From Gammaproteobacteria bacterium (GTDB lineage: Bacteria > Pseudomonadota > Gammaproteobacteria > GCA-001735895), in assembly GCA_020354435.1 (NCBI GenBank), contig CP070646.1:2922175-2986174 (forward strand): DNA of 64,000 nt. Direction: 5' to 3'. A program made the translations under genes and the position numbers. The notes beneath the pieces are model-generated. The model had not been told where the DNA came from, ran no database searches, and was given only the letters and a program-made list of their open reading frames with translations. The first letter of the stretch is position 1. Every line of letters begins with the position of its first letter. Positions 2,176 to 43,984 of the stretch are shown here, piece after piece.

Positions 2176-2628
2176 ATGTCTGAACCACGAAAAGCCCGCG
2201 CGATTGGTATTAACCATGTTGCCCTCGAAGTGGGCGATATCGACGAGGCGCTCGAATTTTACGGCGCCTGGCTCGATTTCGAGCTGCGCGGCCGTAGCGA
2301 TACGATGGCATTTATCGATCTCGGCGATCAATTCCTGAACTTTTCCACTGGCCGGCGCCAGGCGCCCGACGACGAACGCCATTTCGGTCTGGTGGTCGAC
2401 GATCGCCAGTCGATCCTCGACAAGCTCGAGCAAATGGGAATTCCGCTGCTGCCCGGTCCGTTCAAGGATTTTCTCGATCCCTGGGGCAATCGTATCGAAC
2501 TGGTTGACTACGCTACGATTCAATTTTCGAAGGCGCCCAACGTGTTGCGCGGTATGGGCCTCGAAGGTCTCGAGAAAAATCACGAAGCCCTCGCCGAACT
2601 CGCCGAAAAGGGCATGGGGCCGGATTAG
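2176..2628 (+). CDS. VOC (glyoxalase/bleomycin-resistance/dioxygenase) family protein
   Basis: INHVALEVGDIDEALEFYGAWLDFEL…HFGLVVDD…PWGNRIELVDY is typical of the VOC family. Confidence 0.8.
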   Translation: MSEPRKARAIGINHVALEVGDIDEALEFYGAWLDFELRGRSDTMAFIDLGDQFLNFSTGRRQAPDDERHFGLVVDDRQSILDKLEQMGIPLLPGPFKDFLDPWGNRIELVDYATIQFSKAPNVLRGMGLEGLEKNHEALAELAEKGMGPD

Positions 2629-2652
2629 CAGTCACGCCCGCGTCGGCGCGGT

Positions 2653-3129
2653 TTACTTTTGTATGATTCTGAGTTGGTCCTCGCCGCGCAAAATGGTTTT
2701 GTCGTAAGTTTCGGCTTTTAGACGGAAGGTGTAGGTTCCCGGGTTAACCCGGAAGCCGGTGGTGCGCACGTCACAGAGCAGATCGAGGTGACCATCGTTA
2801 TTGATATCGACCTGTTTGCAAAGACTTTTATCGGACTTGCCGACCAGCATTACGTCGATTCCCTCGAGCCTGATCGTACGCGGATTGATGGAGACGACGT
2901 CAAGTGTGGGCGAGCCCAGGATCGCTACCGGAATCACGCGCCCGGCATTCGTGGTTATGGTGTTGATTTCGCTTTCAGGCTTGATATCGATCTGCATCGA
3001 TGACGATGGATCTCCGCCAAACAATCTGCTCGATTGGGCGATTTGTGAATCCTCCGACGCGACCGATGGGGACGCATTGCCACAAATCCATACTAAAAAA
3101 ATCAAACCGGCTTTTAACTGTACTTTCAT
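2653..3129 (-). CDS. secreted protein with an FG-GAP/EF-hand-like calcium-binding loop
   Basis: Signal peptide MKVQLKAGLIFLVWICGNASPSVAS, and a DINNDGHLDLLCD loop. The start was moved to the internal Met (codon 9 of the track ORF 2653..3153). Confidence 0.5.
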   Translation of the reverse strand: MKVQLKAGLIFLVWICGNASPSVASEDSQIAQSSRLFGGDPSSSMQIDIKPESEINTITTNAGRVIPVAILGSPTLDVVSINPRTIRLEGIDVMLVGKSDKSLCKQVDINNDGHLDLLCDVRTTGFRVNPGTYTFRLKAETYDKTILRGEDQLRIIQK

Positions 3130-3282
3130 TTGTCTCTGCTGTTCAGTGATCACGCCATTTTACCTTCTAATTCAGTAATTGTGGTCCCCGATGCGGATCT
3201 CAATGCCGGCAACTACGGCTACCGCATTCATCTTGTGAAACAGGTATACTATTTTTAACAAGCCAGGAATATATAGAAAATC

Positions 3283-3753
3283 ATGTTTAAACTGATCCGT
3301 TTCCTGATCACGCATGCAATCGCGCTCGCTATCGGCTTTGCGCTAGGCGTTTACCTGCTGCCGATACTGGTGGCGCCGCAGGCGCCGAGCGATTTCGAGG
3401 TCAGCAGTAACTCGCAGGGTGCCATTTTCAGCGGCAGGTTTACGCGTGATTTACCGGGCAGCGATTTTCTGCACTGGGGCGAGGGCGATGTTTCGATCAC
3501 ACCGAGCCACATCACTTTCATGGGATCGATCGCTCCCGGCCCGGACTACCGGCTGTACCTGACGCGCGAGCTGGTGCGCAGCGAGGCCGAGTTTTTACCG
3601 GTTAAAGACGATTCCGCGCAGGTCGGCCCGGTCAAGACCTTCGACAATTTCATCCTGCAAATACCGCCCGGGGTCAATCCCGCTGATTACAAGGCAGTCG
3701 TCGTCTGGTGCGAATCTTTCGGCGAGTTCATCACCGCCACCGCTTACCAGTAA
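3283..3753 (+). CDS. membrane-anchored DM13-domain protein
   Basis: N-terminal TM helix. GRFTRDLPGSDFLHWGEGDV…APGPDYRLYL matches the DM13 domain signature. Confidence 0.5.
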   Translation: MFKLIRFLITHAIALAIGFALGVYLLPILVAPQAPSDFEVSSNSQGAIFSGRFTRDLPGSDFLHWGEGDVSITPSHITFMGSIAPGPDYRLYLTRELVRSEAEFLPVKDDSAQVGPVKTFDNFILQIPPGVNPADYKAVVVWCESFGEFITATAYQ

Positions 3754-5857: not shown

Positions 5858-8800
5858 TTCGCTATTTTGCGGCGCATCCCACGGTCGCAAATATCCTGAT
5901 GTTCATCATTCTGCTGCTCGGCATTGCCGCGCTGCCAGGGCTGAACAAGGAAACCTTTCCCGAGATCCAGCTGTACAAGGTACAGGTCACGGTCAACTAT
6001 CCGGGCGCTAATGCTTCGGAGGTCGAGGAAGGCATCTGCAACCGGCTCGAGGACGCAACCGACGGTATCAGTTTTTTGAAGGAGCGCAGCTGCGAGGCGC
6101 GCGACAACTTCGGCACCATGGTGCTCGAAATGCAGGAAGATCAGGATCTGCAGCAATTCATCGACGACATCAATTCGGCGGTCGACGGTATCACCGATTT
6201 TCCGGACGACGCCGAGGACCCGCTGATCGACGAGCTCGGCCGTACCTCGGCGGTGGTAAGCGTCGCGATTAACGCGAACCTGTCACAGCCGGAACTGAAG
6301 GCGCTGGCGGAACATTACCGTTACCGCCTGCTGGCAATGCCGGAAATCCCGATGGTCGACGTCAGCGGCTTTTCGACACACGAGTACAGCGTGCTGGTCA
6401 AGGCTGAAACCCTGCGCCTTTATCGGCTCAGTATCCAGGATATCGCCAACCTGATCCGGCAGCAGGCGGTGGATCTGCCAGCGGGTACGCTCGATGCCGA
6501 CCAGCGGTCGTACCAGATCCGCGTCGAAAACGAACGCCGCAGTGTCGAGGAACTCGCCGATCTCGTGGTCTTGCACGACGAACGGGGCGGACGCCTGCGG
6601 CTCGGCGAAATCGCCACCATCACCGATGATTTCACCGACGAGGAAGTACGCGTCGAACTCGATGGTCGGCCGGCGGCGTTGCTGCAGGTCAGGAAAAACA
6701 CCGGCGACGATACGCTGACCGTCTACAACGCGGTACAGGCCTTCATCGATGCCGAAAACGCGGTGCTGCCGGAATCGACGCGGCTCGTGATCACGCAGGA
6801 TACGGCCTCGATCGTCGACGACCGGCTGCGTTTGCTGATCCGCAACGGCTGGCAGGGTTTGTCGCTGGCGACCCTGACCCTGTTCCTGTTCTTTAGCTGG
6901 CGTTATACCTTCTGGGTAGCGTTGGGTCTGCCGATCTCGTTCATCGGCGGGCTCATGGTCATGAGCCTGATCGGCATCACCATCAACATGATTTCGATGG
7001 TCGCGCTGTTGATGGCGATCGGTATCCTGATGGACGATGCCATCGTCATTTCCGAGAGTATCGAAAACGAGTATCGTTCCGGCAAGCCACCGCTGGAGGC
7101 CGCCGTCGCCGGTATCAGCCGGGTCGGCCGCGGCGTGCTGTCGTCGTTCGCGACCTCGGCCATGCTGTTCGGCAGCCTGCTGTTTTTGAAGGGCCACATC
7201 GGCCAGGTCATGGGCGTGTTGCCGGTGGTGCTGCTGTCGGTGCTGACGATCAGCCTGGTGGAAGCGTTTCTGATACTGCCGCACCACCTGGTGCACTCGC
7301 TGAAGAATCGCGCACTGCTGGACAAACCCGGCTGGCGCGATGCTTTCGAAGACCGCTTCGAGCGCCTTCGTGCCAGGGTCGGCAGTTTCGCCGATCTTGC
7401 GATCGACTATCGTTACCTGACCGTTGGCGTAGCGGTTGGCATATTCGTAGTTACCGTGAGCCTGTTCCCGGCCGGCCTGATCAAGTTCAAGGCGTTTCCC
7501 GATCTCGAGGGCAATGTGCTCGAGGCGCGTATCATCATGCCGCAGGGCACGCCGTTCGAGCGCACCGAGGCGGTCGTCAGCGAGCTGATCGCAAGCCTGC
7601 GCGAGGCCGAGCGGCAGTTACCGCCGGAACCGGAGGGTGAGCTGATTCGGCATGTGCAGGTGTTTTACAGCCACAACGCCGACGCCGGCGAGTCCGGCGC
7701 ACATCTCGCCACGATCAGTCTCGATTTACTCGATTCGGAACGGCGCAATACGTCGCTCAACGAACTGCGGCGGCGCTGGCTCGAGGCCACCGGTTCGATC
7801 TCCGACGCGGTATCGGTGCAGTTCAAGGAGCCGGTACTGGGGCCGGCGGGGCAGGCGATCTCGATCCGCCTGCAGCATGATGACCTGCAGCAATTGTCGA
7901 ACGCGTCGTGGGAGTTGCAGACCTGGCTCAACGGCTATCCCGGTGTTTCCAACGTGATGGACGATCTGCGGCTCGGCAAACCGCAGTTCAGCGTCAGCCT
8001 GCTGCCCGGCTCGCTGGTGTCGGGATTGAATGCCGAGCAACTCGCGCAACAGCTACGTGCCGCTTACCAGGGGGTCAAGGTCGACGACGTCTACAGCGGC
8101 CGCGAAGCCTATGAAATCAACGTCAGGCTCGACACCGATCGCGAAAACGCGTTGCGCGATTTCGAACAATTGAGCCTGTTCAACAACCAGGGCGTCGATA
8201 TCCCGCTGTCGGCAATCGCCGAGATCGATGAGAAGCGGGAATTTTCGCGTATCAACCGCATCAATCATCAGCGAACAGTCACGATAAATGGCGACATCGA
8301 CCCGGATATCGCCAACACCAACGAAATTATCGGCGATACCCGCGAGCGATTTCTCAGTGGTCTGCAGCAGCGTTACCCTGGCATGTTCATCAGCCTCGAG
8401 GGCGAGGTCAAGAACGCGCGCGAGACCAACCAGTCGATCCTGTTGGGATTCGTGCTCGGGATTTTCGGCGTCTATTTTCTGCTCAGTTTCCAGTTCCGCA
8501 ATTACCGCGAACCGCTGGTGGTGTTGATGAATATTCCGCTGGCGTTGATCGGCGTGGTCTGGGGACACAAGCTGATGGGTCTCGACATCACGATGCCGAG
8601 CATGATCGGATTCGTTTCGCTGGCCGGCGTGGTCGTCAACGATTCGATCCTGCTGGTCGAGTTCGTCAAGCGCCGCAGCCTCGAGGGTATGACGCTGCAC
8701 AACGCCGCCGGCCAGGCCGTACGCGATCGCTTCCGCGCGGTCTTCCTGACCTCGGTGACGACCATCGCCGGCATGCTGCCGCTGTTGTCGGAGACGAGCC

Positions 8801-9046: not shown

Positions 9047-9217
9047 TCCAGCGATCGCTCCACAGTGGCGCCTCGGACCCCGAGCCGGGGCCCATTTTTG
9101 CAAACCAGCATAAATCGCAAGTTGGACGATACACAAGACAGATACCATTCGGGGCAATGATTATCGCGTGATTGAGTAATTGATGCCGGCTCGGCGGCCG
9201 GCAAGACAACAGCTGCG

Positions 9218-24483: not shown

Positions 24484-25263
24484 ATGCGCGTGATTTCAAT
24501 TAACACCAACGGTATTCGTGCGGCGGCGCGCAAGGGCTTCTTCGACTGGCTGCCGCGGCAGCGGGCCGACATTATTTGCGTGCAGGAGACCAAGGCACAG
24601 GTCGGGCAGCTAGATCAGCCGATGTATCACCCGAAGAATTACCACTGTAGTTATTTCGACGCGCTGAAAAAGGGCTATGCCGGTACTGCGATTTACAGCC
24701 GGCACGAACCGCTGCAGGTGATCCGCGGTTTTGGCGAATCCGAATTCGACAACGAGGGGCGTTATCTCGAGTATCGCTTCCCGAACCTGTCGGTGATCTC
24801 GCTGTATGCACCTTCGGGCTCGTCGGGCGATCATCGACAGGAGTCGAAATGGCGTTTTCTCGATAGTTTCATGCTGCATTTGCAGGCGCTCAGGCGCAAG
24901 CGTCGCGAGTTCATCATCTGCGGTGACTGGAATATCGCGCATCAGAACATCGATCTGAAAAACTGGCGCTCGAACCAGAAAAACTCCGGCTTCCTGCCGG
25001 AAGAACGCGCCTGGTTGACCGACCTGTTCGACCGCGTTGGATTTATCGATGCGTTTCGCATCGTCGACCCGCGGCCGGAGCAGTATACCTGGTGGTCTAA
25101 CCGCGGCCAGTCCTGGGACAAAAACGTCGGTTGGCGTATCGACTACCAGATCATCACCCCCGGGTTAAAGAGCCGCATTCAGAAAGCGCGGATCTATCGC
25201 GATCGGCGTTTCTCCGACCATGCGCCGCTGATCATGGATTATGATCTGGAGCTCCCGCGCTAG
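24484..25263 (+). CDS. xthA: exodeoxyribonuclease III
   Basis: MRVISINTNGIRAA…ICVQETK…DHAPL. Confidence 0.9.
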   Translation: MRVISINTNGIRAAARKGFFDWLPRQRADIICVQETKAQVGQLDQPMYHPKNYHCSYFDALKKGYAGTAIYSRHEPLQVIRGFGESEFDNEGRYLEYRFPNLSVISLYAPSGSSGDHRQESKWRFLDSFMLHLQALRRKRREFIICGDWNIAHQNIDLKNWRSNQKNSGFLPEERAWLTDLFDRVGFIDAFRIVDPRPEQYTWWSNRGQSWDKNVGWRIDYQIITPGLKSRIQKARIYRDRRFSDHAPLIMDYDLELPR

Positions 25264-26822
25264 TGCCATTGGGTGTAACCAGCGGGGGCAGCTCGCTTAA
25301 GCTATTCCTCCACCGGCGGGTGATAACGATGCTGTTCCTCGGTTTTTCCGCCGGCATTCCCCTGCTGCTGATTTTTTCTTCGCTTAGCCTGTGGCTGCGA
25401 GAAGCCGGCGTCGACCGTGCCGTGGTCACCTATTTCAGCTGGGCCGCACTCGGTTATTCGTTCAAGTTCGTCTGGGCGCCGCTGGTCGACCAGTTGCCGT
25501 TACCGTTGCTAAGCTACAGGCTCGGGCGTCGGCGGGCATGGATGCTCACCGCGCAGTTAGCGATTGCGAGCGCGATCCTGTTGATGGCCTCGATCGATCC
25601 GCAGTCGAGTGAAGCCAGCCTGACGCTGATGGCGCTGGCGGCGGTATTGCTCGGTTTTTCATCCGCGACCCAGGATATCGTCATCGATGCCTACCGTATC
25701 GAATCGGCCGAGGCAGAGCTGCAGGCGATGATGTCGGCCACCTACATCGTCGGTTACCGCCTCGCCATGCTGGTGGCCGGTGCAGGCTCGCTCTACCTGG
25801 CCGAGGGCTTTGGCAGCACTAACGAGGTTTATAGCTACCAGGCCTGGCAAAACACTTATTCCATCATGGCGGCGGCAATGTCGGTCGGCATCATCACGAC
25901 CCTGGTGATCGCTGAACCGGCGCGCAGCGATTCGAAATCGTACCTGGAAACGACCGGCGAGTATGCCCGTTTCCTGCTGCTGTTTGCGGTCGCGGTAGCC
26001 GGTTTCGTCGGGATTTATGCGCTGTCGAGTGACTTCGTCGAGGGCATCAAGGCCAGCCTGACGGGACAGCTGGGGAACCGGGCCTTCGCGGCAAGCCTGA
26101 TCGAGGCGTTGCGCCTCGGTGGTGCCATGCTTGCCGCCTGGATACTCGCTGTAGGACTGGTCAGAATCGGCCTGGTGCGTTACGAGATGGTGGATCGTAC
26201 CTATATCGTGCCGGTACGGGACTTTTTTCAGCGTTATGGCTGGTCGTTCGCCTGGTTGTTGCTGGCGCTGGTCGGGCTTTACCGCATTTCCGATATTGTG
26301 CTCGGCGTCATTTCCAACGTGTTTTACAAGGATCTCGGTTTTGACAAGACCCAGATTGCCGACGTCGTGGTTATTTTCGGGATTTTGATGACCATTGTCG
26401 GTGGCTTGCTCGGCGGCCTGCTGGCGGCTCGTATCGGCGTGGTTCGGATCCTGCTGCTCGGCGGCGTGCTGGCGGCGGCAACCAATTTACTGTTCATGCT
26501 GCTCGCCGGTATCGGTAACGATATTTTCTGGCTTTATGTCGTCATATCGGCGGATAACCTGTCGGCGGGCATTGCCAGCGCGGCGTTTGTCGCTTTCCTG
26601 TCGAGTCTCACCAACGTGTCGTTTACCGCGATGCAGTACGCGATCTTCAGCTCGTTGATGACCCTGATCCCGAAATCGCTGGGTGGCTACTCGGGCTCGA
26701 TGGTGAACGCGATCGGTTACCCGGGTTTTTTCCTGTTGACCGCGATTCTCGGTATACCGGTGTTGTTACTGATCGTGGCCGCGGCGAAGCGATTCGAGTT
26801 ACGCGATCAGGGTAACGCCTGA
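25263..26822 (+). CDS. ampG: AmpG-family MFS muropeptide permease
   Basis: [14 protein letters not shown]…WAPLVD, about 14 TM segments. The true start may be internal, near 25329. Confidence 0.75.
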
Positions 26823-28449: not shown

Positions 28450-29013
28450 TCAGAGGCCCAACATGCCCTTTTTTAAACTTTTGTCGGCGGGATGGTTGCC
28501 CAGCCAGATTTCGAGTAACGCGTTTTTGAAATCTTCACCCGGGATCGTGCCCAGCGGCTTGCCGTTGCGGCTGACGCGCACACCCTGGTCGGGCCTGTAA
28601 TCGAAAGCGTACTGTTCTTTCGCGACCACGCTGCTGTCAAAATACTGGTAAAACTGGTCGATGCGCGCCTGCAGCTTTTTCAGGGTTTCGCTGTTTTGAT
28701 TTTTTTCGAAGCCTTCACGCCAGGCCTCGATCAGTTTGTCGCGATCGACTTCCTTGTAGACAAAATCGAGTTGCACCCGCCACGGTCCCGGCCGCGACAG
28801 AATCTCGGCGACATCGGACGACCGGTTCGGCAGGTACAACGCGCCGACGTAGACGTCGACCCACAGTTTTTCACGCAGGCCGATGCCGTTCAGCACCAGG
28901 GTCTGGCCATCCCCGGTTTTTATTTCATCTTCGACAAATACGCCGGAAAGCTCGGCCGCGGCGGTTAATGTGCACCACAGGCCCAGGCAGGTAGCAAGTA
29001 CCGCTTTTTTCAT
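28450..29013 (-). CDS. chalcone-isomerase-like family periplasmic protein
   Basis: Signal peptide MKKAVLATCLGLWCTLTAAA, then VLNGIGLREK…YVGALYL…LLEIWLG. The start was moved to Met60; the GAGGAGGA RBS supports it. Confidence 0.55.
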   Translation of the reverse strand: MKKAVLATCLGLWCTLTAAAELSGVFVEDEIKTGDGQTLVLNGIGLREKLWVDVYVGALYLPNRSSDVAEILSRPGPWRVQLDFVYKEVDRDKLIEAWREGFEKNQNSETLKKLQARIDQFYQYFDSSVVAKEQYAFDYRPDQGVRVSRNGKPLGTIPGEDFKNALLEIWLGNHPADKSLKKGMLGL

Positions 29014-29102: not shown

Positions 29103-29702
29103 TCAATCGTTGGCTGCTTCCGGTTTGACGTACTGGATGACACCGAGCCGGATAAGCTCGGCATGCAGTATAACCGCGCGATCGGTGCATTCCGGTATCT
29201 CGAGCAGGCGCTGTTTCAGCGCGGTTTCCAGCGGCAGCAGGTAAATCAGTTGATAGAGTATTTCCGAAAAGGACTGGTCGGCCTTACGAATGCGGCCCTC
29301 CTGGGCGCTGATATGATCGAGCAGCTCGAGCATGTAATGAAATTGTTCAGGGATCTCCCGGGTATTGCTTTCCTCGAGTACCTTGATTTCGGCGAAAGTC
29401 AGTCCGTCGGTCTGGGTGTGGGTCGACAGGATTTCGAAACGATCGATACCTAAGGCGGTGATACCAAGCAAGCCGTCGGCGCGGTGCTCCCAGTCGCTGA
29501 TCGTGGCCGTCGTGCCGATCGAGTAAATATCGGCATTAACGGCAGTTTCCTCGCCGCTGTGGATCAGCACCACGCCGAAGGCGCTGCTTTCGCGCATGCA
29601 GTTGGCGATCATGTCGAGGTAGCGCGGTTCGAAAACCTTGAGGCCGAGCGTGTTGCCGGGCAGCAGCACGGTTTTCAGCGGAAACAGTGGAATCTCGGTC
29701 AT
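29103..29702 (-). CDS. standalone LON N-terminal (substrate-binding) domain protein
   Basis: IPLFPLKTVLLPGNTLGLKVFEPRYLDMI is the LON_N signature. Confidence 0.75.
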   Translation of the reverse strand: MTEIPLFPLKTVLLPGNTLGLKVFEPRYLDMIANCMRESSAFGVVLIHSGEETAVNADIYSIGTTATISDWEHRADGLLGITALGIDRFEILSTHTQTDGLTFAEIKVLEESNTREIPEQFHYMLELLDHISAQEGRIRKADQSFSEILYQLIYLLPLETALKQRLLEIPECTDRAVILHAELIRLGVIQYVKPEAAND

Positions 29703-29725: not shown

Positions 29726-30331
29726 TCAGTGACCCCAGCGCGGCGACAGGTCGTTATCGATACCGAGCTGGTCGAGTATGCGCGAGACGACGAAATCGAT
29801 CAGTTCCGATACCTCACTGACGCCGTGGTAGAAACCCGGATTGGGTGGCAATATGACGACGCCGAGGCGCGCCAGCTTGAGCATGTTTTCCAGGTGGATG
29901 GCGGAGAAGGGTGTTTCCCTGGGAACCAGGATCAGGCGCTTGCCTTCCTTGATGACGACATCGGCGGCACGGTGAATCAGGTTTTCGCTGCTGCCGACCG
30001 CAATCGACGCCAGGCTGCCCATGCTGCAGGGGCAAACCACCATCGCGTCCGCCACCGACGATCCGCTGGCCGGGGGCGCGGTCCACTGGTCCTTCGAGTA
30101 GACGTCGATCAGAGCCTCGTCGGCATCGAAATACTCGGCGAACTGCCGTCGCATTTTCTGCGGCGAACCCGAAAGCTTGAGCTCGGTTTCCATGCCCATG
30201 ACGATCTGCCCCGGTTGCGAGGTAATGAACTGTACATGAATTTTGTTTTGCAGACAGCAATCGAAAAGGCGCAACATATAGTCAGCGCCAGAGGCTCCGG
30301 TCATTGCCAGAGTTACCGTTTCGGGTTTCAT
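29726..30331 (-). CDS. ubiX: flavin prenyltransferase UbiX
   Basis: TLAMTGASGADYMLRL…VVCPCSMGSLASIAVG. Confidence 0.9.
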   Translation of the reverse strand: MKPETVTLAMTGASGADYMLRLFDCCLQNKIHVQFITSQPGQIVMGMETELKLSGSPQKMRRQFAEYFDADEALIDVYSKDQWTAPPASGSSVADAMVVCPCSMGSLASIAVGSSENLIHRAADVVIKEGKRLILVPRETPFSAIHLENMLKLARLGVVILPPNPGFYHGVSEVSELIDFVVSRILDQLGIDNDLSPRWGH

Positions 30332-31638
30332 GGATCGGAGATTGCTATTTCGGCCTCGACCAGTTTATCAGTAGCCTGCGACAGTCGCGAGATCAGGTTT
30401 TCCAGGAAGATGCGATAGTAGCGCAGCTGGGTTTCAGTGGAAGCCATCTCCATCAGCGAGGTGCTGACGCACATCAACGAAACATCGGTGCGCGCGACGA
30501 TCGTCGCATTACGCGGCTGATGCGTTAAAAACGCGATCTCACCAAAGCAGTCGCCCTGTTTCATCAGGCCGACGACCTTGTCATTCTTGACTACCTCGAC
30601 GCCGCCCTTGGCAATGATGTAGAAAGCGGTTTCCTTTTCTCCCTCGGTGACGATGACCTCGCCCTTTTGGAATTCCTTCCATTCGCTGGCGTTGACTACC
30701 TCGGTGATCTGGTCGTCGCTGAAATCCTTGAAGAAAGCGAGGTAGCGCAGCGTCTTCCATTTTTCCTGCATGTCGATGCGCTCACCGACACCGCGCAGTC
30801 GGCCGAAGGAGTTGCTCAGATCCCTGGCCAGCAGGTAGGCGGATTCGTAACGATCGTAAATAATCTTTTGCATGCATTTCTCGACGATCATGGCGATGTG
30901 TTCGGGCACCTCGGGATTCAGCTCCATGATCGGTTCCGGATCGAGATTGCTGATCTTGTAAATCAGCGATTCGAGACTGCCGGCCTTGTATGGCGTGCGT
31001 CGAGCCAGCAGCGCATACATGACCGCACCCAGCGAGTAGATGTCGGATTGCGCGACCAGGCGTTTTTCCTCGGATAACTGTTCCGGCGGCATGTACATCG
31101 GCGATCCCTGAACCTCGGTATCGTGTCCCTCGAAACCGACATCGACGTGAGCGATGCTGAAGTCCATGATCTTCACTTCGCCTTCGTTGCTGAGCATGAT
31201 GTTGCCGGGTTTCAGGTCGCGGTGAATGATGCCCTCGCGATGCACATAGTCGAGACCTTTGGCGCACTGGTAGATGACATCGACCACCTGGTTCGGCGTC
31301 AGCGTCTTGCCGCCGGTGACATACTCCTGCAACGTGACACCATCGACGAACTCCATGACGATGTAGTTGAGGTCGTCTTCCTGGCCGGCATCATAAACGC
31401 TAACCACTGACGGATGGTGCATGCGACCGGCACTGTATACCTCTGCAAAAAACCCCTCGCGCAGTTTCTGCTCGGTCGCCGGATCCATGTCGTGAGCGGA
31501 ATGCGCCACCTTGATCGCGACGGTGCGCTGCACGAAGGGATCGTAAGCCTCGTAAACCACGCCCATGGCGCCGCGGCCGATACGGCGTTTCACTTCATAC
31601 TTGGCTATTTTTGCAGGTCTATGTGATTTCTCAGACAT
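30328..31638 (-). CDS. Hanks-type Ser/Thr protein kinase fused to a C-terminal cyclic-nucleotide-binding (CAP-like) domain
   Basis: Kinase motifs: GRGAMGVVYEA, VAIK, HRDLKPGNIML, DFS, SPMYMPPE. C-terminal cNMP domain: GDCFGEIAFLTHQPRNATIVA. Its start overlaps the ubiX stop (ATGA). Confidence 0.85.
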   Translation of the reverse strand: MSEKSHRPAKIAKYEVKRRIGRGAMGVVYEAYDPFVQRTVAIKVAHSAHDMDPATEQKLREGFFAEVYSAGRMHHPSVVSVYDAGQEDDLNYIVMEFVDGVTLQEYVTGGKTLTPNQVVDVIYQCAKGLDYVHREGIIHRDLKPGNIMLSNEGEVKIMDFSIAHVDVGFEGHDTEVQGSPMYMPPEQLSEEKRLVAQSDIYSLGAVMYALLARRTPYKAGSLESLIYKISNLDPEPIMELNPEVPEHIAMIVEKCMQKIIYDRYESAYLLARDLSNSFGRLRGVGERIDMQEKWKTLRYLAFFKDFSDDQITEVVNASEWKEFQKGEVIVTEGEKETAFYIIAKGGVEVVKNDKVVGLMKQGDCFGEIAFLTHQPRNATIVARTDVSLMCVSTSLMEMASTETQLRYYRIFLENLISRLSQATDKLVEAEIAISDP

Positions 31639-31647
31639 ACCCGAAGT

Positions 31648-32991
31648 CTAGTTCCGCATTGCGTCGATCAGGCGTTGATGGATGTTGTCGAAACCGCCAT
31701 TGCTCATGATAACGACTTGATCCCCTGACCGACAATGTTGTACTAAGTAATCGATAATTTGTTGTGAATCGGTTTTTACATCTACTATTGTAGGCGCAGA
31801 TTGCGCCATTTTCTCGAGATCCCACTGCAAACCCGGAATTTCGCAAAGTAAAACCAGGTCGGCGGCGGCCAGCGACTGGCCAAGCTGGGATGCATGTGCG
31901 CCCATTTTCATCGTGTTCGAACGAATATCGAGCACGCCTATCAGGCGTCCCGGGGTCCGGCCTTTAAGCGCTTCCAGGGTTAACGCAATCGCGGTCGGAT
32001 GGTGGGCGAAATCGTCGATGATGCGTACGCCATCGATTTCGGCAATGATCTCCTGGCGTCGGCGCACGCCCCTGAACTCGCGCAGGGCCGCAAGCGAGGT
32101 TTCTATCGGAATTCCGGCATCACGCGCGGCGATAATGGCAGCGCTCGCGTTAAGCGCGTTGAATTGCCCGGGCTGCGAAAGCTCGAGCGGATACCTGGCC
32201 TTGCCGTTATCGACATACAGCGCCAGGTCCGCGTCGAGATAAAAGTCCGCGCCGGAATCACGCGTGGAGAAATCGATGCGGTTGCTCCAGCAACCCATTT
32301 GCAGAACATCAAGCAGGTTGTCGTCGTCCCGGTTGACGACGATTAACGCCGACGCCGGCAGCGTGCGTACCAGATGATGGAACTGGCGTTTGATCGCGTT
32401 CAGGTCGTCGAAGATATCGGCATGATCGAATTCGAGGTTGTTCAGGATCAGCGTCCGGGGATGGTAATGCACGAACTTGGATCGTTTGTCGAACAGCGCC
32501 GAGTCGTATTCGTCGGCCTCGATGACGAAGAAGGGGTCGCTGCCGAGCCTGGCCGAAGCGTTAAAATTGTGGCCGACGCCGCCGATCAGATAGCCGGGAT
32601 CAAGGCCGGCGTGCTCGAGGATCCAGGCCAGCATGCTGCTGGTCGTGGTTTTGCCATGCGTGCCGGCCACCGCCAGCACCCAGCGGCTTTGCAATGCCGC
32701 CTCGTAAAGCCACTGGGGCCCTGAGCAGTAGCGCAGGCCCTGGTCGAGGATTGCCTCGAATTGGGGGTTACCGCGGGTAATCGCGTTGCCAACGATATAC
32801 ATATCGCAATCCGACGGCAGCGATTCTGCATCGTAACCCTGATGCAGGTGAATGCCGGCCTTTTCCAGCTGCGTGCTCATCGGCGGGTAAACGTTCGCAT
32901 CGGAACCTTCGACCCCGTAGCCGAGTTCGCGAGCGATTAACGCAATGCCGGCCATGAAGGTGCCGCAGATACCGAGAATGTAAATCTTCAC
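31648..32991 (-). CDS. mpl: UDP-N-acetylmuramate:L-alanyl-gamma-D-glutamyl-meso-diaminopimelate ligase
   Basis: MKIYILGICGTFMAGIALIARELGYGVEGSD. Confidence 0.9.
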   Translation of the reverse strand: MKIYILGICGTFMAGIALIARELGYGVEGSDANVYPPMSTQLEKAGIHLHQGYDAESLPSDCDMYIVGNAITRGNPQFEAILDQGLRYCSGPQWLYEAALQSRWVLAVAGTHGKTTTSSMLAWILEHAGLDPGYLIGGVGHNFNASARLGSDPFFVIEADEYDSALFDKRSKFVHYHPRTLILNNLEFDHADIFDDLNAIKRQFHHLVRTLPASALIVVNRDDDNLLDVLQMGCWSNRIDFSTRDSGADFYLDADLALYVDNGKARYPLELSQPGQFNALNASAAIIAARDAGIPIETSLAALREFRGVRRRQEIIAEIDGVRIIDDFAHHPTAIALTLEALKGRTPGRLIGVLDIRSNTMKMGAHASQLGQSLAAADLVLLCEIPGLQWDLEKMAQSAPTIVDVKTDSQQIIDYLVQHCRSGDQVVIMSNGGFDNIHQRLIDAMRN

Positions 32992-33506
32992 CAGTAAAAC
33001 CAGATCAGGATGAATTGATAAACCACGTAGTAATTGAAGGCTATCATAGCTGAAAGAAAGGTCGAGATTTCAAAAGCACGTTTGAAGATCAGCGACATGA
33101 TCGCGAGATTCCACAGCAGCACCAGGTAAAAAATCGGGTTTTGCAACATGTTTTCATAACCGTCTCCGAATCGGTAGACAATGATCGAAACCACGGTCAT
33201 GAGCATGTTGATACCGACCAGTGCGGAAAACGTCTGTTGAAACCGTGCTATAGAATTTTTCCAGCGCAGTCCGAGGTAAGCTACCAGCGCCAGCAGACCG
33301 ATTTCCAGCGTCAGGTGCGCGCTCAACTCGGCGAAGCCGCGTTCTTCGTCAACCAGCAACAGGCACAGCAGGTAATAACTGAGTAGCGTCAGGGCAGTGC
33401 AATGGGGACTATAGGGCAGCCGTGCCGGGCTCGATAAAAACAGGCTCATGTAGACGTATTGTCCGAGGCTAGTGAGCCATAAGCCGAGGATGTTTTGCAT
33501 CGGCAC
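32988..33506 (-). CDS. hypothetical polytopic membrane protein
   Basis: About 5 TM helices over 172 aa. Overlaps the mpl start by 4 nt. No recognisable family. Confidence 0.5.
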   Translation of the reverse strand: MPMQNILGLWLTSLGQYVYMSLFLSSPARLPYSPHCTALTLLSYYLLCLLLVDEERGFAELSAHLTLEIGLLALVAYLGLRWKNSIARFQQTFSALVGINMLMTVVSIIVYRFGDGYENMLQNPIFYLVLLWNLAIMSLIFKRAFEISTFLSAMIAFNYYVVYQFILIWFYW

Positions 33507-43907: not shown

Positions 43908-43984
43908 TGGCGCGCTCGGCGGGAGTCGAACCCACGACCTTTGGCTTCGGAGGCCAACACTCTATCCAACTGAGCTACGAGCGC
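43908..43984 (-). tRNA. tRNA-Arg (anticodon CCG)
   Basis: The reverse complement reads GCGCTCGTAGCTCAGTTGGATAGAGTGTTGGCCTCCGAAGCCAAAGGTCGTGGGTTCGACTCCCGCCGAGCGCGCCA: a cloverleaf with a T-loop GGTTCGA, an anticodon loop CTCCGAA, and an encoded CCA. Confidence 0.9.

Follow-up and report, generated by a model that had tools for sequence, protein, structure and literature searches.

Can a bacterium gate Ser/Thr phosphorylation directly by a cyclic nucleotide, and what would a kinase so controlled be doing inside a cluster of housekeeping genes? The question is raised by a gene on the minus strand (positions 30328-31638) of a 64,000-nt stretch of DNA, here called the window, from a Gammaproteobacteria bacterium (GenBank assembly GCA_020354435.1, contig CP070646.1, positions 2,922,175 to 2,986,174). 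Cyclic-nucleotide-dependent protein phosphorylation is textbook eukaryotic signalling, and bacterial cAMP is thought to act mainly via CRP-type transcription factors. The gene is real and strongly conserved, and its product, designated STK-CNB, is a PknB-type Ser/Thr kinase (STK) fused to a cyclic-nucleotide-binding (CNB) domain. Its sequence points to a soluble, cytoplasmic, PknB-like RD kinase whose activity is probably under control of cAMP or cGMP, these being the most likely ligands of the CNB domain. Ligand, direction of regulation and substrates are given below as we infer them. As a compact, conserved kinase with an intact cyclic nucleotide (cNMP) site, the protein offers a tractable case for direct bacterial cNMP-gated Ser/Thr phosphorylation.

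Domain architecture and structural relatives

The STK-CNB gene encodes 436 residues from an ATG start. Pfam assigns Pkinase (PF00069) to residues 14-267 with 172.6 bits (E 1.3e-50; cutoff 31.7) and cNMP_binding (PF00027) to residues 321-394 with 69.8 bits (E 2e-19; cutoff 27.5), which bears out the two-domain architecture that an earlier reading of the bare letters (the original prediction) had proposed. The kinase domain, PknB-like and of the Hanks type (30838-31599, minus strand; residues 14-267), is delimited by Pfam, by an alignment of 69 homologs and by Foldseek. It carries the G-loop GRGAMG, K43, E66, the catalytic loop HRDLKPGN at 139-146 (HRD at 139-141, N146), the DFG variant DFS at 159-161 and GSPMYMPPE at 178-186. 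One CNB domain is present, C-terminal to the kinase. The CNB module as a whole (30337-30798, minus strand; residues 281-434), defined from Pfam, PDB sequence matches and secondary structure modelled with AlphaFold2 (AF2), contains the FGEIAFL…PRNATIVA region, FGEIAFLTHQPRNATIVA (residues 365-382), of which FGEIAFLTHQPRNAT (residues 365-379) constitutes the phosphate-binding cassette (PBC). The catalytic loop, the DFS variant and the CNB motif had all been read correctly in the original prediction, and the homolog alignment corroborates both the intact loop and the canonical PBC.

Public annotation of an identical protein (P0001, 421 residues, from an uncultured gammaproteobacterial metagenome-assembled genome) places the start at V16. 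The ATG at 31638 appears the likelier start, because residues 7-15 (RPxKIxKYE; start region 31594-31638, minus strand) are kept family-wide and the Pfam kinase domain extends back to residue 14.

With a shallow alignment of 36 sequences at 70-95% identity, AF2 returned a predicted local distance difference test score (pLDDT) of 57, and that model was discarded; a diverse alignment of 54 sequences gave a mean pLDDT of 84 and a predicted TM-score (pTM) of 0.66. The latter model shows the kinase fold up to about residue 277, then a helix at 281-298, an eight-stranded beta-barrel at 319-391 that carries the PBC, and a long C-terminal helix at 401-434. Only about three residues separate the last kinase helix from the first helix of the CNB module. 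Along the C-terminal helix runs a conserved stripe of F407/F411/L415/L419 together with a near-invariant R418; a coiled-coil dimer formed through this helix is not established, since the periodicity is about 3.6 residues, with an i+4 hydrophobic stripe and no clean heptad. The linker GRLRGVGER (residues 278-286; 30781-30807, minus strand) resembles the inhibitor site of PKA regulatory subunits (RRGAI). It is poorly ordered in the AF2 model, and its significance is doubtful because its conservation is restricted to the window clade.

Foldseek matched the kinase best to Mycobacterium tuberculosis PknB (1o6y; TM-score 0.93, root-mean-square deviation 1.8 Å, 34% identity), and the kinase domain alone was closest by sequence to PknB (146 bits), PknA and StkP. 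The list of PDB matches obtained with the full-length protein is topped by Plasmodium PKG solely because the several CNB domains of that enzyme add score. For the CNB domain, the closest PDB sequence matches are the ligand-binding CNB domains of PKG and of the PKA regulatory subunit. Given the PknB-type kinase and the single CNB domain placed C-terminal to it, STK-CNB is understood as a PknB-type kinase that independently acquired one CNB domain, and not as a relative of the AGC kinases PKA and PKG. The description of the protein as a bacterial analogue of cAMP- or cGMP-dependent protein kinase thus stands as a functional analogy and does not extend to kinase type, domain layout or the origin of the fusion.

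Residue conservation and purifying selection

The 69 aligned homologs were taken from genome loci and span 33-95% identity. Invariant or nearly so among them are G23, K43, E66, H139, R140, D141, K143, N146, D159, E186 and D199. The DFG glycine is replaced by serine in 66 of the 69. In the PBC, every homolog has G366 and E367, and 65/69 have R376. Another 52, more divergent family members exhibit the same pattern of catalytic and PBC conservation; DFS and DFG alternate freely across them, without other decay, and the serine is therefore no sign of a pseudokinase. All but one of these 52 have Ser or Thr in the activation loop, in keeping with an autophosphorylating RD kinase.

Within the clade, the ratio of nonsynonymous to synonymous substitution rates (dN/dS) is 0.03-0.07 for STK-CNB, compared to 0.07-0.15 for ubiX and 0.07-0.17 for mpl, the ratios being approximate because dS is near saturation and the mpl comparison being confined to cases where both values were computable. 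Purifying selection is strong, and within the clade STK-CNB is under the tightest constraint of all genes in the operon. Because it is more constrained than the adjoining housekeeping enzymes, the kinase probably matters physiologically. At the closest locus (L001), STK-CNB is 94% identical to that of the window, compared to 81% for Mpl and 86% for UbiX. At deeper divergence the pattern is reversed, with STK-CNB evolving faster than the neighbouring Mpl, UbiX and LonN (the standalone Lon N-domain protein described below).

Family distribution and previous records

A family search was made over 1.84 billion representatives, clustered at 50% identity, and the best 150 matches were examined. Among these were 41 clusters of proteins 400-480 residues long, each matching end-to-end at 34-76% identity, with representatives that align in one stretch to STK-CNB residues ~5-428. 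The compact family thus delineated (~430-460 residues) has as its hallmarks an N-terminal kinase, a C-terminal CNB domain and a GDCFGE motif, and the window protein fits it. Marine metagenomes and the Olavius algarvensis Gamma 3 endosymbiont contribute hundreds of clusters at 84-95% identity, and Gammaproteobacteria that oxidise sulfur, in marine sediments or as symbionts, carry the family in abundance. Named members, all under generic 'serine/threonine kinase' names, are from Gammaproteobacteria metagenome-assembled genomes, Azospira and Pelomicrobium methylotrophicum, the last of which provides a cultured host (WP_147799612.1). A profile search started from a 9-sequence alignment mostly returned sequences of the close clade already recovered and contributed little further diversity.

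In the literature, bacterial CNB domains 'attached to … kinases' were catalogued by Kannan et al. 2007 (PMC2246266), and CNB-linked kinases have been reported in Planctomycetota (PMC11032199). The Pkinase-CNB architecture is hence widespread and already catalogued, with no characterised member found.

The operon in the window

All genes of the cluster are read from the minus strand, in the order memb172-mpl-STK-ubiX-LonN and then a Chalcone_3 gene. The first, memb172 (32988-33506), encodes an uncharacterised hydrophobic, probably membrane protein of 172 residues without a match in Pfam, NCBIfam or PADLOC, and it overlaps mpl by 4 nt. The mpl gene (31648-32991) specifies the murein tripeptide ligase (UDP-MurNAc:L-Ala-gamma-D-Glu-meso-DAP ligase; TIGR01081, 577 bits, cutoff 389) and ends 9 nt before the start of STK-CNB. 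Downstream of the kinase comes ubiX (29726-30331; flavin prenyltransferase, TIGR00421, 191 bits, cutoff 109), whose start ATG is interlocked with the TGA stop of STK-CNB in an ATGA overlap (30328-30331, minus strand; the plus strand reads tcat). LonN (29103-29702) is a standalone Lon N-terminal, substrate-binding protein of 199 residues (LON_substr_bdg, PF02190, 93 bits). The Chalcone-isomerase-like Chalcone_3 protein (28450-29013; PF16036, 190 bits) has a signal-peptide-like N-terminus and is a peripheral member of the cluster; its coding sequence in fact starts at 29013, preceded by GAGGAGG. The translational overlap with ubiX and the flanking genes, mpl on one side and ubiX followed by the Lon N-domain protein on the other, are accordingly as originally predicted.

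A promoter and terminator scan of the operon was uninformative, the signal counts being equal to the shuffle expectation, and Rfam and tRNA scans returned nothing near the STK-CNB locus. Across all 64 kb of the window, a tRNA-Arg(CCG) at 43908-43984 (minus strand) was the sole RNA gene detected. Among the window's open reading frames (ORFs) that were checked, there is no second kinase and no second CNB protein. A permease of the AmpG muropeptide family (TIGR00901, 518 bits; 25263-26822, plus strand) is encoded on the strand opposite to mpl, at a distance of 4.8 kb, and represents a second peptidoglycan-recycling gene in the neighbourhood. Some 11 kb away is the gene for a membrane-anchored GGDEF-EAL protein of 745 residues (16881-19118, plus strand), associated with cyclic di-GMP turnover, which directly follows a YicC-like gene with a 4-nt overlap.

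Conservation of genomic context

Loci L001-L067 are syntenic with the window, their arrangement being gmhB-glyS-glyQ, then memb-mpl-STK-ubiX-LonN-CHI, then hemL-ampG-xth. Across related loci the median gaps are 5 nt from mpl to STK and 18 nt from ubiX to LonN, and the ATGA overlap between STK and ubiX is retained in 51/64. Three more distant lineages maintain the core of the block. In L082 (STK 43% identical to the window protein) the order is memb-mpl-STK-ubiX-LonN-thioredoxin, set in different outer flanks; L069 (42%) has memb-mpl-STK-ubiX followed by LexA, without LonN; and L087 (34%) has memb-mpl-STK-LonN-thioredoxin, without ubiX. A thioredoxin gene thus holds the Chalcone_3 position in L082 and L087. 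In all four linked lineages mpl is upstream of STK, and a memb172 counterpart of 171-175 residues is upstream of mpl in L069, L082 and L087. It is consequently mpl and the gene for the small membrane protein, rather than ubiX, that accompany STK most persistently; L087 lacks ubiX and L069 lacks LonN, so that each of these two is dispensable somewhere. A conserved genomic context, in line with the original prediction, is borne out, with ubiX absent in L087 and with other family members at unrelated loci.

Among these unrelated loci, the L080 homolog stands at the end of ribH-nusB-thiL-pgpA, those of L071 and L083 adjoin moaC and an M48 peptidase gene, and the L084 homolog sits between hydrolase genes and purD. 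In Ca. Magnetocorallium paracelense (L072, 4035-7347), a 33% identical homolog is part of a PP2C phosphatase-FHA-kinase cassette, unlike the window clade, where no phosphatase or FHA gene adjoins STK. Some loci hold more than one CNB gene. The L068 paralogs (2359-3645 and 5989-7305) flank pgi and a gene for a CBS-pair protein. Those of L085 (9-839 and 996-2369) comprise a truncated copy upstream of a full one, the truncated copy being labelled by the gene caller as a standalone cNMP_binding protein of 149 residues. In L082 a standalone cNMP_binding protein of 160 residues (9121-9603) is encoded ~3 kb downstream of the mpl-STK-ubiX-LonN block.

In Pseudomonas aeruginosa, the locus tags of mpl (PA4020) and ubiX (PA4019) follow each other without an intervening kinase, which agrees with the earlier statement that the two genes can be directly adjacent and supports insertion of the kinase into a pre-existing pair of mpl and ubiX. 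A neighbour-joining tree groups the mpl-linked kinases, with a bootstrap of 17/200, and is compatible with one insertion; at that bootstrap value, a single insertion event beside mpl is not demonstrated.

In the Olavius algarvensis Gamma 3 endosymbiont, mpl has an in-frame premature stop (codon 44, AAG to TAG) in three independent assemblies (L007:4648-5991; L078 and L079:8648-9991), unlike all of the other 58 loci with full-length mpl. Downstream of the stopped gene, the kinase, ubiX and LonN are intact, with a kinase dN/dS of 0.04. The stop may signify a loss of murein-peptide recycling, and the intact kinase beside it argues against Mpl as the kinase's sole purpose.

Proposed mechanism and alternative explanations

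For a kinase gated by cAMP or cGMP, a mechanism can be envisaged. The CNB module follows immediately on the last kinase helix and ends in the amphipathic helix with its conserved hydrophobic stripe. Ligand bound at the PBC, through E367 and R376, would reposition the N-terminal and C-terminal helices of the CNB module, and their movement would alter autoinhibition or dimerisation of the kinase and, with it, autophosphorylation of the activation loop. The kinase gene most likely came to its place in the operon through an old insertion into an mpl-ubiX housekeeping cluster; such an insertion would bring constitutive co-expression, with ubiX translation coupled to that of the kinase. Operon membership is most simply read as co-expression with housekeeping genes. 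Should the kinase act on a product of its own operon, Mpl would be the best candidate, though speculatively so, because MurC and MurD are phosphorylated or bound by PknA (PMC3605390), Mpl is a MurC paralog and the AmpG permease is encoded nearby; the mpl pseudogene of the Olavius symbiont weakens this idea. A link of the kinase to ubiquinone or Lon is speculative. The originally proposed regulatory input to ubiquinone prenylation or to a Lon adaptor finds no specific support, considering that ubiX is missing from a lineage at 34% kinase identity and LonN from another, and that family members occur in the PP2C-FHA, ribH-nusB-thiL-pgpA and moaC/M48 loci; the same observations speak against an operon-encoded substrate in general.

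Several points weigh against control by cAMP or cGMP, and two competing explanations deserve consideration. The glycine of the beta2-beta3 loop (G169 in PKA RIalpha; 'evGsrfyii' in PKG), which according to Kannan et al. 2007 co-varies with the PBC arginine (PMC2246266), is Glu336 in STK-CNB; across the family the position is mostly D, E or N, with Gly in the L071 and L072 groups only, so that allosteric coupling may differ from that in canonical cAMP sensors. Four lineages of the 69-homolog alignment have lost the arginine of the PBC. No nucleotide cyclase, PP2C or FHA gene is found among the window ORFs checked, and the literature yielded survey-level mentions and no experimentally characterised bacterial Pkinase-CNB protein. 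The CNB domain might thus respond to another ligand, or serve independently of ligand as a dimerisation or autoinhibition module, in the manner of several CRP/FNR-type and trypanosome PKA CNB domains, the latter of which bind nucleosides and not cAMP (PMC10959531). The residue next to the PBC arginine, variable among N, Q, A, G, V, T and S, would agree with this. We nonetheless regard a CNB domain that is no cyclic-nucleotide sensor as plausible but clearly the less probable reading, seeing that the PBC is otherwise canonical (G-E-x-A…P-R-x-A-T) and fits the cNMP-binder consensus of Kannan et al. (PMC2246266), that the glutamate and, with few exceptions, the arginine are maintained, and that the best PDB matches are true cGMP and cAMP sites. 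The other explanation, which generalises the original prediction, takes the kinase to be a regulator specific to its operon, phosphorylating Mpl, UbiX, LonN or the membrane protein, in which case a second messenger would gate peptidoglycan recycling, the supply of prenyl-FMN and ubiquinone, or proteolysis. Tight, conserved packing with translational overlap speaks for it, as do the survival of the core block at 34-46% STK identity amid different outer flanks, the nearby AmpG permease and the precedent of PknA. We judge it unlikely all the same, for only memb172 and mpl are universal in the linked lineages, the kinase is under strong constraint beside the Olavius mpl pseudogene, the adjacency seen in P. 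aeruginosa means that the linkage can be a matter of inherited gene order, the genes around family members elsewhere are unrelated, and the bootstrap for a single linked clade is weak. A bolder reading would make the family a prokaryotic functional counterpart of PKA/PKG, a single-chain PknB-type kinase activated by cAMP or cGMP; in the mpl-linked lineages of marine sulfur-oxidising Gammaproteobacteria, the gutless-worm symbiont included, it would couple the cNMP level to envelope recycling (through Mpl and membrane-protein targets) and to the co-translated UbiX. We consider this reading unlikely.

Two further possibilities have been largely or fully set aside. An anti-phage defence kinase of the PD-T4-6, MADS MAD6 or Stk2 type, sensing an immune cyclic nucleotide, is hinted at by matches to the PADLOC models for PD-T4-6 (up to 256 bits) and mad6 (214 bits) and to NCBIfam MAD6 (165 bits). 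These matches are confined to the generic kinase domain, and the MAD6 score falls short of the NCBIfam cutoff of 460 bits; the 200-256 bits given by the PADLOC models are the contribution of that domain alone and are no evidence of defence. The gene is single-copy, of host-like base composition (G+C at third codon positions, 0.72) and part of a vertically inherited housekeeping operon without partner defence genes, its neighbours having no PADLOC matches. The defence reading is thereby largely refuted and retains a very small probability. A pseudokinase or scaffold, its catalysis abolished by the DFS variant, is an even more remote prospect: the serine in place of the DFG glycine speaks for it, and against it K43, E66, D141, N146 and D159 are intact, DFS and DFG interchange without decay, and purifying selection is strong. 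On residue conservation and selection, we reject it.

Comparison with known systems

The closest known relatives of the STK-CNB kinase in both sequence and fold are the Hanks kinases of the PknB/PknA type (M. tuberculosis PknB, Staphylococcus aureus Stk1, Streptococcus pneumoniae StkP). Like these, STK-CNB belongs to the RD kinases and carries Ser/Thr in its activation loop; unlike them, it has DFS in place of DFG. Unlike the PASTA kinases of this type, it has neither a transmembrane segment nor a PASTA sensor, and an intracellular CNB sensor is found instead. The top NCBIfam match, PknB_PASTA_kin (NF033483), reaches 267 bits compared to a cutoff of 450, leaving STK-CNB outside the PASTA-kinase family, and it is limited to the kinase part (residues 13-287 on profile positions 8-278 of 563).

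With PKG, that of Plasmodium included, STK-CNB shares the placement of kinase and CNB domain with canonical PBC on a single polypeptide, and the logic expected of it, phosphorylation gated by a second messenger, would be that of PKG and the PKA holoenzyme. Differences to these enzymes are substantial. The kinase is not of the AGC type and does not have the AGC C-terminal tail, for which no room is left by a CNB helix that sets in at residue 281, immediately behind the kinase core. Relative to PKG, whose tandem CNB domains are N-terminal, the order of the domains is reversed, and the CNB domain is on the kinase chain, unlike in PKA, where the CNB domains belong to a separate R subunit. One CNB domain is present as compared to two to four in PKA and PKG, and the beta2-beta3 glycine is replaced.

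Fusion of a CNB domain to a protein-modifying enzyme is also known from the mycobacterial cAMP-dependent acetyltransferase Pat (NF058543), whose output is acetylation as opposed to phosphorylation in STK-CNB; the match to that model is weak (residues 300-387, 40 bits, cutoff 460). Lastly, the 'Other_bacterial' CNB class of Kannan et al. 2007 comprises CNB domains fused to CheY, rhodanese, kinases and DNA-binding domains (PMC2246266). STK-CNB resembles this class in being a bacterial CNB domain attached to a kinase, with a PBC close to the consensus GEMALLDGEPRSATVVA. The survey lists the domain combination only, without family definition, gene context or function (PMC2246266); the compact STK-CNB family of ~435 residues and its mpl-linked operon are described here.

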